Below are positions 5,808-45,178 of a stretch of 64,000 nt of DNA, in pieces. The first letter of the stretch is position 1, and each line of letters opens with the position of its first letter. The notes under the pieces were generated by a model. It was not told the origin of the DNA and searched no databases. It saw only the letters and a list, made by a program, of their open reading frames with translations. The stretch is from Bacteroidota bacterium (GTDB taxonomy: Bacteria; Bacteroidota; Bacteroidia; Bacteroidales; Cfx3-03). The translations under genes and the position numbers were made by a program. The DNA lies in the NCBI GenBank assembly GCA_013390605.1, contig JACAUB010000001.1:5054250-5118249 (forward strand), written 5' to 3'.

Positions 5808-6060
5808 AAACAACCCGTAATCAATTGTTGATAAACTTTAACATAACACGATTATTAGCAAAGTGGTTCAACAACATCTGAAATTCACAAATTTATTAAA
5901 GCTATCTTTTTCGAATAACATGCATAGCCATCTGTTATTCAATAAATCATAAATGCGCTCATTCTTTTTTAGTGTGTGTTTAATCAACATTGTGTTGATA
6001 GCTATGAAGATAAATTCTCATTATACAATTACGAAGTTAATCGGTTAAAATATACTGTCT

Positions 6061-6270
6061 ACTCTTCAAATATTTATTGATAATGAGGGTATAATGATCC
6101 ATCGATCCTTAATGAGTTTCCTTTATTTGCACCGTGCTTCCGCTATGACTCCCACTAATTATTGGAGCCATGGTGGAAGCACGCTGGATCTACGCTGGAC
6201 CCATGCCGGACTCAATGGTGGTTATGCTTCTGATATAGAATTATATAGCCTAAGTTAAATGAGGGAAAAA
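6061..6270. repeat. intergenic hairpin + phased 11-bp repeat element, copy A
   Basis: Ungapped match to 44801-45010 (155/210 identical by hand count). 20-bp stem 6133-6152/6164-6183; GGA-initiated units at 6164, 6175, 6186, 6197, 6208. Confidence 0.9.
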
Positions 6271-6686
6271 GAGTGTGGTAAATTGATTATGAATATGTTA
6301 CTTTTCATTATCTTAAACAATGCTATTCTATAAGCAATAATTTCACTTCGGAGTCGGAACATTATATGAATAACTATTTGTAAAATTTCTCAGATTATTG
6401 TGATGCCAGATATTCCGGATTGTATGACGATCTTTCATCCGTAAATAATTTTTAGATTGAGGTATGATGGAACTCGCATATTAAATTTACTACAGTGTCT
6501 ATGTTTGTAAAAACATACTCGTTTGATTACTAAGTTTATCAAACGCAAATGTTATTTCAGAAGGTTTTTTTAGATCTACTAAATAAGGCGATCCATAATC
6601 TTTAATGGCTGCTGATTTTAAACCTGCTGATAAAACGCGTAGATAAAAGCGGAATTTAATAGATAGTATAATGAATAATGTATTAT

Positions 6687-10060: not shown

Positions 10061-10188
10061 TTATATAATTTGTAACTAGTTGGTATATTAGTAAATGTGA
10101 ATCAAAATTAATGCATAGTTAATATGAAATTAATCTTGTTCGGAGTTTATAGATCTATTTTTGGACGATAACATTAAGAATCTTAGTA

Positions 10189-10797
10189 ATGCCTCTTGAT
10201 TTAATATTATATATCACGAAATACGGGTATCTGGCTATTTTTTTACTCGTTTTTCTTCAGGAAATAGGAGCTCCCAATCCCATTCCCAACGAATTGGTGC
10301 TTCTCTTTTCCGGATACATGATATTTTTAGGGATACTTAAACTACCATTAGTTATCCTCGCTGCTATACTTGCCGACTTTATAGGAACCAGCATATTGCA
10401 TACTGTGTTTTATTTTTCAGGAGCTTACATTCTTCAACACAAACCACGTTGGTTACCAATTCCAACCCAAACTATTCATAAACTTAAACAACGAATTTCT
10501 AAAAATGGCCTTGGTGGAATTTATATTGGTCGACTAACTCCTTTTATTCGTGGCTATACATCTGTCATTGCCGGATTACTTCAAATTGAAGCCAGAATAT
10601 TTTTACCAATTGCGTTGATCACTGCTTCGATCTGGGTCACAATGTATGTAACGGCTGGTATTTTACTAGGCCCTTTCTGGAGTCAGGTTGTGGCAAATAT
10701 CAATAATATTAAATATTACATGTTGTTTATATTTTCTGCTGGTCTATTAATCATCATTATCCGTTCATTAATAAAATACAGAACTGTAAAAAGATGA
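10189..10797 (+). CDS. DedA family membrane protein
   Basis: YGYLAIFLLVFLQEIGAPNPIPNE and GRLTPFIRGYTSVIAG motifs; hydrophobic, 202 aa. Confidence 0.9.
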   Translation: MPLDLILYITKYGYLAIFLLVFLQEIGAPNPIPNELVLLFSGYMIFLGILKLPLVILAAILADFIGTSILHTVFYFSGAYILQHKPRWLPIPTQTIHKLKQRISKNGLGGIYIGRLTPFIRGYTSVIAGLLQIEARIFLPIALITASIWVTMYVTAGILLGPFWSQVVANINNIKYYMLFIFSAGLLIIIIRSLIKYRTVKR

Positions 10798-10949
10798 ACA
10801 CTAAGTGGGCATTCTTTCTTTTGATTTGAAATATAAGTGGCATGCAAGTGAATGATAAAATGATGAAACGAGCATGTTCTAAAAGTAAAGAAGCTAAAAC
10901 TAATTTAATATACGAGTTCTATAAACCTTAATTTAAAAACTTATAACTG

Positions 10950-11987
10950 ATGAAAGTACATGTTGTTTCGGAATCAATATATATTACAAAAGGCAATGGT
11001 GTCCATACGGCTTTTATGGAATTAATCGAATTACTGAAAGAAAAAAATGATGTAGAGGTAGTTGTAAATGAGGAAGGTCATGGCGATGTTTTTCATTGTC
11101 ATACTTATGGGCCGTATTATTTTTGGAAAGGTCTACGATATAAGGGGCGAAGAATCCATACCGTACATGTTATTCCTGATTCTATCAAAGGGTCATTGCC
11201 TTATTGGCGAATATTTATGCCTTTTGTTAAATGGTATTTCAAGATGGTTTATTCGTATGCAGATGTTTGTCTAGCCATTTCTCCAATGGTTGAACAAGGA
11301 ATCAAAGATCTGGGTGCTAATACACGAATAGTAAAGCTATCTAATCCTATTCATGTTGAAAAATGGAAACGTACAGCTGAAATGCGAAGTGAGGGACGTA
11401 GAATGTTAGGTTTATCAGATACTGATTTTGTAGTATTAGGAGTGGGGCAACTACAAGGGAGAAAAGGGGTAGAAGATTTTCTCGATGTTGCTGAATCCAT
11501 TCCTGAAGCGCAGTTTGTTTGGGCCGGTGGCAGGCCTTTTGGTGTATTTACTGAAGGTATAACGCGAATTGATGCAAAAGTTGCAAAGTCAGCACAAGTT
11601 AAATTTACCGGGATGCTCGATTTAGATAAAATGCCTTTTATATATGCGGCAGCTGATTTATTATTATTTCCTTCTTATCAGGAGAACTGTCCGTTGGCTC
11701 CGCTGGAAGCTGCAGCTTCAGGTATGCCAGTAGTTTTCAGGAATATTAAAGAATATACTTTACTATATGAAAATACTTATCTGAAAGCGAATACTACATC
11801 TGAGTTTATTGAACTTACAAGAAGATTGATGCACGACAAATCTTTCTATGAACAAGGCTTGAAAATTTCAGAAGAGATGATCATGCAATTTGATAAAAAG
11901 ATAATCAGGGAAAAGTTGATACAACTCTATCAGGAGTTAAGTTATAATAGAAATAGAATCCCGCTTCACAAATTGTCTGTCCGATAG
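10950..11987 (+). CDS. glycosyltransferase family 4 (glycolipid synthase-like)
   Basis: GVGQLQGRKGVEDF and FPSYQENCPLAPLEAAASG (E-x7-E) GT-B motifs. Confidence 0.88.
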   Translation: MKVHVVSESIYITKGNGVHTAFMELIELLKEKNDVEVVVNEEGHGDVFHCHTYGPYYFWKGLRYKGRRIHTVHVIPDSIKGSLPYWRIFMPFVKWYFKMVYSYADVCLAISPMVEQGIKDLGANTRIVKLSNPIHVEKWKRTAEMRSEGRRMLGLSDTDFVVLGVGQLQGRKGVEDFLDVAESIPEAQFVWAGGRPFGVFTEGITRIDAKVAKSAQVKFTGMLDLDKMPFIYAAADLLLFPSYQENCPLAPLEAAASGMPVVFRNIKEYTLLYENTYLKANTTSEFIELTRRLMHDKSFYEQGLKISEEMIMQFDKKIIREKLIQLYQELSYNRNRIPLHKLSVR

Positions 11988-44500: not shown

Positions 44501-44800
44501 ACAAAAGTGATTTTAAACATATTGAAAATTAGCAAAATGAATAATAAATAACACAATTGGGTGATATTATTATAATTTTTAACATGAATATATTCTGAAA
44601 ATAGCACTTAATATTGATACGAAAACAGGCTTTTATGCTACTAATTCATTTTGAAATCATATTTATATCTTTGCTTTAATGTAGACGCTTTTATTTTTAG
44701 CAATTTGGGTATCTAAAGCAAGTCACAGCTCTATACCACAAAATAAATAACCTGTATAAAATTAGGAAGCGATAAATCAAAATAAGAAATAACACCTTTT

Positions 44801-45010
44801 ATTCTCCAAATAATCATTGATAATGGAGGTATAATGATGCTTCAATCCCCAAAGTATTCTATTTGCTTACTCCATGATTTCACCATGCCTCCCATTATTT
44901 GCAGGAGTCATGGCGGAAGGATGCCGGATCCACGCCGGACTCACACCGGACCCAATGGTAGTTATATATCTGATATAGAATTGTATAACCTGTGTTAAAA
45001 TAGGGAAATC
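44801..45010. repeat. intergenic hairpin + phased 11-bp repeat element, copy B
   Basis: Collinear with 6061-6270 at offset 38740; GGA units at 44904, 44915, 44926, 44937, 44948; more degenerate stem. Confidence 0.9.
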
Positions 45011-45178
45011 GAGGAAGGAGAGATTGTAATCTTTTGATTATTAATATAATATTGTTTGAAGTAATGTGACTTATATAAAAAACGGAAGCTTTAATAATTA
45101 AACGTTTTTTGTTGTAAGCAACGGCTTTAACTTTTTTATCTTTGATCATAAATGCAAACTTTTTAATACGCTGAGTCA

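Follow-up and report, generated by a model that had tools for sequence, protein, structure and literature searches.

The systems closest to the element reported here are IS-derived prokaryotic MITEs generally and, within the Bacteroidales, the BrickBuilt MITE of Porphyromonas gingivalis. In those parts of a published account that describe them (PMC10969869), IS-derived MITEs are elements of <500 bp that are non-coding, intergenic, dispersed and prone to form stem-loops, that share their terminal repeats with a resident autonomous IS and vary in presence between strains, and in which the target duplication is seen in young copies only and fades with age; the family described here resembles them in these respects, with a perfect target duplication at one of its long-form insertions. 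BrickBuilt, as portrayed in part of the paper devoted to it (PMC4596501), is likewise a Bacteroidales MITE whose interior contains short units arrayed in tandem, with ~19 copies per genome, an always intergenic location and a narrow host range, all of which recall the present family, and promoter activity has been reported for it. A full-text search of the literature on ISAon1 found no paper, and searches on ISL3, MITEs and Bacteroidetes gave no description of the present element among the papers listed. We describe it here as a new MITE family, with a likely ISAon1/ISL3 driver, from an uncultured environmental genus of the Bacteroidales.

The window analysed, a 64,000-nucleotide stretch of chromosomal sequence, contains two copies of this element (referred to below as copies A and B) which an earlier note had reported from the letters alone as a non-coding repeat of 210 bp at 6061-6270 and 44801-45010. 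The hand count given there, 155/210 identical positions (73.8%) without gaps, was reproduced exactly, while the 30 shifted registers used as a control for the match gave a maximum of 91/210. The repeat itself therefore stands, but its length needs to be revised, as the similarity between A and B sets in abruptly at ~6058/44796 and has faded by ~6299/45048 (as judged from 20-nt bins and nhmmer), and this sharp onset and later fade indicate an element of ~240–255 bp and not 210 bp. Both copies belong to the short form of the family and were matched on the + strand by the nhmmer family profile, copy A at 6058-6299 (G000:C1:5060307-5060548, E 1.7e-63) and copy B at 44796-45048 (G000:C1:5099045-5099297, E 6.9e-65). 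The housekeeping genes around the two copies, which encode an ABC transporter, an M16 peptidase, a DNA alkylation repair enzyme and glutamate 5-kinase, are mutually unrelated, as the note had said. A second dispersed repeat of ~95 bp, unrelated to the palindromic element, is also present in the window at 6433-6527 (+ strand) and near 10863-10956 (- strand); it has ~60 blastn matches in the source genome at 73–90% identity, many copies in all three congeners and no Rfam match, and one of its copies lies directly upstream of the palindromic element at 767k.

BLAST and two iterations of nhmmer were run against the window's own genome (215 contigs totalling 5.63 Mb, 98% complete and 36.7% GC; this source genome is referred to as G000 and its congeners as G001, G002 and G003), which was the check on copy number that the note had proposed. 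This identified 23 non-overlapping nhmmer loci in G000, 22 of them strong (E <=5e-46) and one degenerate. The strong set includes two assembly duplicates, C1:3-229 of the 10 kb copy and contig C54 of the 1748 kb copy, which leaves 20 distinct intergenic copies plus the degenerate one, so that both members of the original pair are real but belong to a family of ~20 copies of which the window holds two. At the start of contig C1, 2.6 kb of sequence duplicate the ~8–12 kb region in inverted orientation (G000:C1:1-271 and 10120-10455), and both this and the C54 repeat of the 1748k copy probably arose as artefacts of assembly at repeats. Overlap with an ORF of at least 100 aa was seen for none of the 21 C1 loci, and the genes neighbouring the 20 distinct copies are convergent in seven cases, divergent in two, and tandem in 11 (in either direction). 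The copies are also present, at repeat-level depth, in DNA contigs from four sequencing runs. The block conserved across copies is an imperfect palindrome of ~255 bp, and the sequence of the array which it contains has no other occurrence in G000 outside the family.

Each window copy contains an inverted repeat of 23 nt. The central hairpin of copy A (6130-6186) has 23-nt arms at 6130-6152 and 6164-6186 which are 83% complementary and separated by an 11-nt loop. Five phased 11-nt units, read off the sequence, occupy the right arm of this copy at 6164-6218 (+ strand), and five corresponding units are found in copy B at 44904-44958 (+ strand), offset by +38740 from those in A; Tandem Repeats Finder reports a period of 11 in both (6163-6203 with 3.7 copies, and 44923-44954 with 2.9 copies). 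The arrangement of inverted units, 11-nt spacer and five units in 11-bp phase that had been read by eye was thus recovered. The five tandem units, with the consensus GGAnnCAyGCC, make up the right arm of the palindrome, and the left arm mirrors them in degenerate form. The TGATA boxes earlier placed about the dyad are present on both arms, with the right-arm CTGATA nearly invariant across the family. In the alignment of the 20 copies (214 columns), column i pairs with column 192-i outward from the 11-nt loop over ~45 positions, and at the 33 specified stem pairs 81.8% of cells are standard-paired versus 32–42% when the partner is slid by 1–3 columns. Two-sided changes involve nine pairs and 25 cells compared to 14.6 in shuffles, a value reached by 0/500 shuffles, although related sequences can exceed such shuffles without any structure.

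Conservation of spacing, which the note had seen in the pair, extends to the further copies, none of which breaks the phase. The sole internal indel in the 20-copy alignment is the duplication of a left-arm unit, AATGAATTCAC, in one copy (G000:C1:559112-559447; alignment A2, columns 38-48), and because this is exactly 11 nt the phase is preserved even where the length differs. The gapless 11-nt phase would have been kept because the hairpin and array tolerate whole-unit changes only. One low-depth contig from a peat metagenome run (X2) joins window position 6117 to 6192, skipping 74 nt (the left arm with the loop and the initial units of the right arm), which could mean either an allele in which the hairpin is deleted or an artefact of assembly.

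Part of the family takes a longer form in which the same core lies between perfect 22-bp terminal inverted repeats, giving an element of 491 bp. When long forms were aligned (five from G000 and five metagenomic, all from different loci), similarity was found to end exactly at GGATCAGTCGGAAAAGTTGGGG and, on the other side, at its reverse complement; these boundaries are common to the 10 aligned sequences, and the perfect 22-bp repeats are retained at both ends in three G000 copies and at one end in a fourth. A genome search with the 22-mer (<=4 mismatches) returned 22 sites, and an inward-facing pair 1547 bp apart marks an IS (G000:C1:4997246-4998792) situated 55 kb upstream of the start of the window; the observation that the window contains no transposase was correct, with the matching one located outside it. 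The downstream ORF of the IS matches Pfam DDE_Tnp_ISL3 (E 4e-52) and the NCBIfam model 'ISAon1 family transposase' (453 bits, cut-off 250); for the upstream ORF the match is to 'ISAon1 family transposase N-terminal region protein' (152.5 bits, cut-off 55). As both ORFs match ISAon1 models, the two-ORF layout is normal for this IS group and does not represent a break. The long MITE and the IS share only their 25–33-bp ends, and the interior of the MITE including the core is unrelated to that of the IS. It should be noted that the IS copy has a long poly-C and an N run inside its right terminal repeat (G000:C1:4998630-4998770; locus L105, 1735-1855), which makes the 3' end unreadable and means that its integrity cannot be judged, and that no target duplication was found in its flanks. 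Fragments of the transposase also occur in G001, where the family is present (95% identical), and in G002 (90% identical), yet no core copy was found in the latter. The left module of the long MITE (profile ~1-137) occurs alone at ~11 other loci (G000:C1 near 3417708, 1188161, 2342874, 3280635, 1949758 and 4667932, and further loci at 1203993, 652337, 3634412, 4704955 and C10:54), several solo 22-bp terminal repeats are found in G000, and other small elements probably use these IS ends.

A perfect target duplication was found for one long-form insertion. Two loci in one metagenome record set (L092 and L093) have outer flanks which are adjacent in G000 and match overlapping halves of the long-form profile (267-491 and 1-337), and the 8-mer CAATCCAT abuts both element ends (8/8). 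The flanks converge on a single site in G000, 4750663-4750670, which reads CAATAGAT and is without the element. Eight bp is the usual length of target duplications in the ISL3 family. When eight long-form insertions were compared by eye, the duplication was 8/8 in one, 6/8 in one, and <=4/8 in six.

These two loci were part of a larger set of 10 from related strains, identified in metagenome contigs scanned exactly with the invariant positions of the family, with flanks that are 79–93% identical to G000. Seven of these are long-form (L092 and L093 being the halves of one insertion) and three are short-form. The six long-form insertions have their G000 counterparts near 1830 kb, 959-961 kb, 1156 kb, 3262 kb, 4750 kb and 4537-4543 kb, and none of these sites holds a copy, which constitutes a presence/absence polymorphism and makes the copies usable as markers of strain-level insertion polymorphism. 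The six sites empty in G000, the 8-bp duplication, and the terminal repeats which the long forms share with an IS identify this non-coding, dispersed set of sequences as a MITE family. Of the explanations offered in the note, it is the non-autonomous mobile element that accounts for the ~20 intergenic copies, the filled and empty sites, and, in the long subfamily, the 22-bp ends identical to those of a resident IS and the duplication.

Beyond these strains the family has a narrow distribution. Across 41 genomes of the order, matches are confined to G000 and the congener G001 with the addition of one weak 36-nt match, the congeners G002 and G003 have no match to the family core, and annotated plasmids and phages gave no blastn match to the core. 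The relatives often lack the element at orthologous sites, in comparisons too diverged to yield base-exact ends: the intergenic region holding copy A is 27 bp in G002 versus ~800 bp in G000, the counterpart of the 728k short-form copy is 13 bp in G001 (where the site is empty) versus 397 bp in G000, and the 4240k locus is 12 bp in G002 versus 1195 bp in G000, where it comprises the element and a MarC-family gene. At the copy B locus, the G001 flanks are 1685 bp apart without the element, and only one flank matches in G002. Base-exact empty sites were sought for copy A in G002 and G001 and for L090 in G000, but the intergenic DNA is too diverged or contains other insertions. The MarC-family membrane protein gene adjoins the element at G000:C1:4240564-4241534 (locus L002, 1375-2570), and both are absent at the orthologous site in G002, where a version of the gene, 76% identical, is found at another location. 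In G001, an extra ORF of at least 439 aa, absent in G000 and G002, is located between the ABC transporter and M16 peptidase orthologues (locus L061, G001:C179:1-2376, at 1058-2374) and is open at the locus end; our guess, from the sequence, is that its product may be a membrane protein.

An exact-pattern scan of a genome collection found two loci, one in a Bacteroidales MAG and the other in Streptomyces. The latter, from Streptomyces bungoensis (L085/L115; L115 ~1480-1540, - strand), is intergenic and has three tandem 11-nt units, GCCGGACTyAT, followed by an inverted copy; the units are almost identical to those of the core, the locus matches the 30-nt pattern, and it is the only one in that genome. 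We take this to be a chance match, though a striking one.

Taken together, we think it probable that the window loci are old short-form MITEs of a genus-restricted family whose long forms were moved in trans by an ISAon1/ISL3 transposase with an 8-bp target duplication. In this scheme, the core palindrome of ~255 bp would be seated between 22-bp terminal repeats which are the ends of the resident IS, the DDE transposase of the IS would act in trans to cut at these repeats, and the cut element would be inserted elsewhere with duplication of 8 bp of the target. The short forms, including both window copies, would have spread by the same route and later have lost their recognisable ends. The long subfamily is the younger of the two, and coverage of the long-form profile forms a continuum from 1-491 (three copies) through 1-490, 5-461, 81-480 and 59-437 to core-only matches (~160-460). 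A relic of the terminal repeat (17/22) is found ~30 nt to the left of the core in two of the 14 short forms (null P 0.0007 for >=16), and in the other 12, including both window copies, the terminal-repeat match is at background; the best ungapped matches for the window copies are 10/22 on the left and 11/22 on the right. Terminal-repeat relics picked out by eye in copies A and B were dropped as they were not above background when tested. No target duplication is visible in the short forms, including those in the window, and as the window copies have neither relic nor duplication, we infer rather than observe their mobilisation by the ISAon1/ISL3 transposase. A match to an IS end, which the note had named as counting against its own reading, is found for the long subfamily only; the window copies have no recognisable IS ends.

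The absence of a relic from 12 of the 14 short forms is what might be expected had the core been an independent mobile or recombining module in REPIN or foldback style, with short forms that spread alone and one that was later captured between ISAon1/ISL3 ends. The short forms also end at similar places with weakly inverted ends, the core has nothing in common with the IS interior, and the occurrence of the left module by itself suggests modular assembly. Nonetheless, long and short forms are connected by copies of intermediate profile coverage, two short forms keep an ISL3-type relic, the array is carried by no other element in the genome, and no Y1/HUH transposase is present (PF01797 had 0 matches in this 98%-complete genome, and the same search matched 6/14 control genomes). 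The lack of a Y1 transposase excludes a REPIN/RAYT system, and we regard independent spread of the core as a possibility of a doubtful kind. The uneven conservation of the core raises a different question, since pairwise identity among the short forms is 82% in the right arm compared to 62% in the left arm and 61–63% in the outer parts, and simple neutral decay is not a sufficient explanation for this. The right arm is also better kept in three orthologous pairs (74%, 86% and 81% versus 59%, 78% and 55% for the left arm), although both arms diverge faster than the flanking genes, and the array stands out as GC-rich against a genomic GC content of 36.7%. Such conservation could reflect either selection on an array that binds protein or gene conversion from copy to copy, and the array itself may bind the transposase or another protein, or may be a mere hairpin-forming passenger. 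That it would be a functional module, protein-binding or structure-forming, which selection has kept after insertion is a tentative suggestion that we consider unlikely, but such a role would explain why the array has outlasted the terminal repeats and stayed GC-rich at 37% GC; it could, for example, be an internal landing site for the small protein of the upstream ISAon1 ORF or for a protein of the host that recognises direct repeats spaced by one helical turn. Improbable, too, is the proposal that host or element has recruited the right arm as a binding platform, in which five sites on one face of the helix would serve a protein that recognises direct repeats ~11 bp apart and would be retained by selection after insertion. 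The better-kept right arm, its GC content, and a phase that is never broken other than by the one 11-nt indel are in keeping with this, but no candidate protein is known, the copies lie in any orientation beside unrelated genes and often between convergent ones, the orthologous cores diverge faster than their flanking genes, and gene conversion could homogenise the arm as well. Should the conservation of the array reflect function, the family would offer an example of selection acting on the interior of a MITE.

The compensatory changes in the long hairpin could also be read as those of a structured small RNA encoded by the element, or of a hairpin with a stabilising, terminating or regulatory action in read-through transcripts. 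Copy A has a fold z-score of -4.0 on the + strand (-2.95 on the - strand), and stable stem-loops are commonly described for MITE transcripts in parts of a published account (PMC10969869). Against this, the fold z-score of copy B is only -1.6, the RNAalifold consensus is weak (-8.2 kcal/mol), and mismatches in the central stem are G-U in 25 cases and A-C in 28 (sums over the per-pair table), numbers so similar that neither strand is favoured as RNA. The Rfam search which the note had suggested gave 0 matches in the window at gathering score (Rfam 15), and a permissive scan of eight copies with E up to 1 found generic hairpins only, the best scoring 35 bits where the cut-off is 96. Nor was a T-run noticed after any hairpin in the sequence. 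The Bacteroidetes -7 promoter motif has the consensus TAnnTTTG, and this was found at a shared position in fewer than two of the 20 copies on either strand. We consider the structured RNA put forward in the note to be very unlikely as a result of the missing Rfam family and promoter motif and the equal treatment of the two strands. Scarcely credible is a family of small protein genes, although both window copies have a 54-codon ORF at an equal offset (copy A 6094-6258 and copy B 44834-44998, both + strand in the ORF list and open frames without gene support) with an upstream GAGGG/GGAGG, and the frame from the shared ATG is open in eight of the 20 copies. The other 12 have stops or no start codon, the frame is closed in the long forms, and the codon-position entropy (0.77/0.64/0.75, with no excess at the third position) and a synonymous fraction of 0.24 in all three frames indicate that there has been no selection at the protein level. 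The 54-aa ORF was rejected as a gene on these grounds.

A MITE family moved by an ISAon1/ISL3 transposase remains our preferred explanation, and the striking pattern seen in the window is explained in outline as mobile DNA, with the conservation of the array being the point of wider interest. Arrays of the iteron or centromere type are similar in having direct repeats in exact 11-bp phase, as in parC of plasmid R1 with its 11-bp repeats, but the present family is spread over ~20 chromosomal sites next to unrelated genes, where no partition or replication genes adjoin it, and the iteron, centromere or arm-site recombination locus suggested in the note is a poor fit for this reason. REP and REPIN sequences (RAYT) share with the family a dispersed intergenic location, imperfect palindromes of two inverted halves and ~20 copies, but REPs are much shorter than the units here, and one subfamily carries terminal repeats of the DDE type together with a target duplication. 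The ISL3/ISAon1 IS has the 22-bp inverted repeats of the long forms, one insertion of which shows the 8-bp duplication, whereas our elements are without a transposase and have an unrelated interior. In typical IS-derived MITEs, as parts of one account have it (PMC10969869), the sequence is AT-rich, while in this family the interior is GC-rich and outlasts the terminal repeats in old copies; the sharing with the IS is here limited to the 22-bp ends, and the interior is a palindrome of 11-nt tandem units. The likeness to BrickBuilt is one of description, as the relevant part of its report (PMC4596501) gives 23-nt units forming a minisatellite between a leader and a tail, whereas the present family has five 11-nt units, fixed in number, which form one arm of a hairpin.
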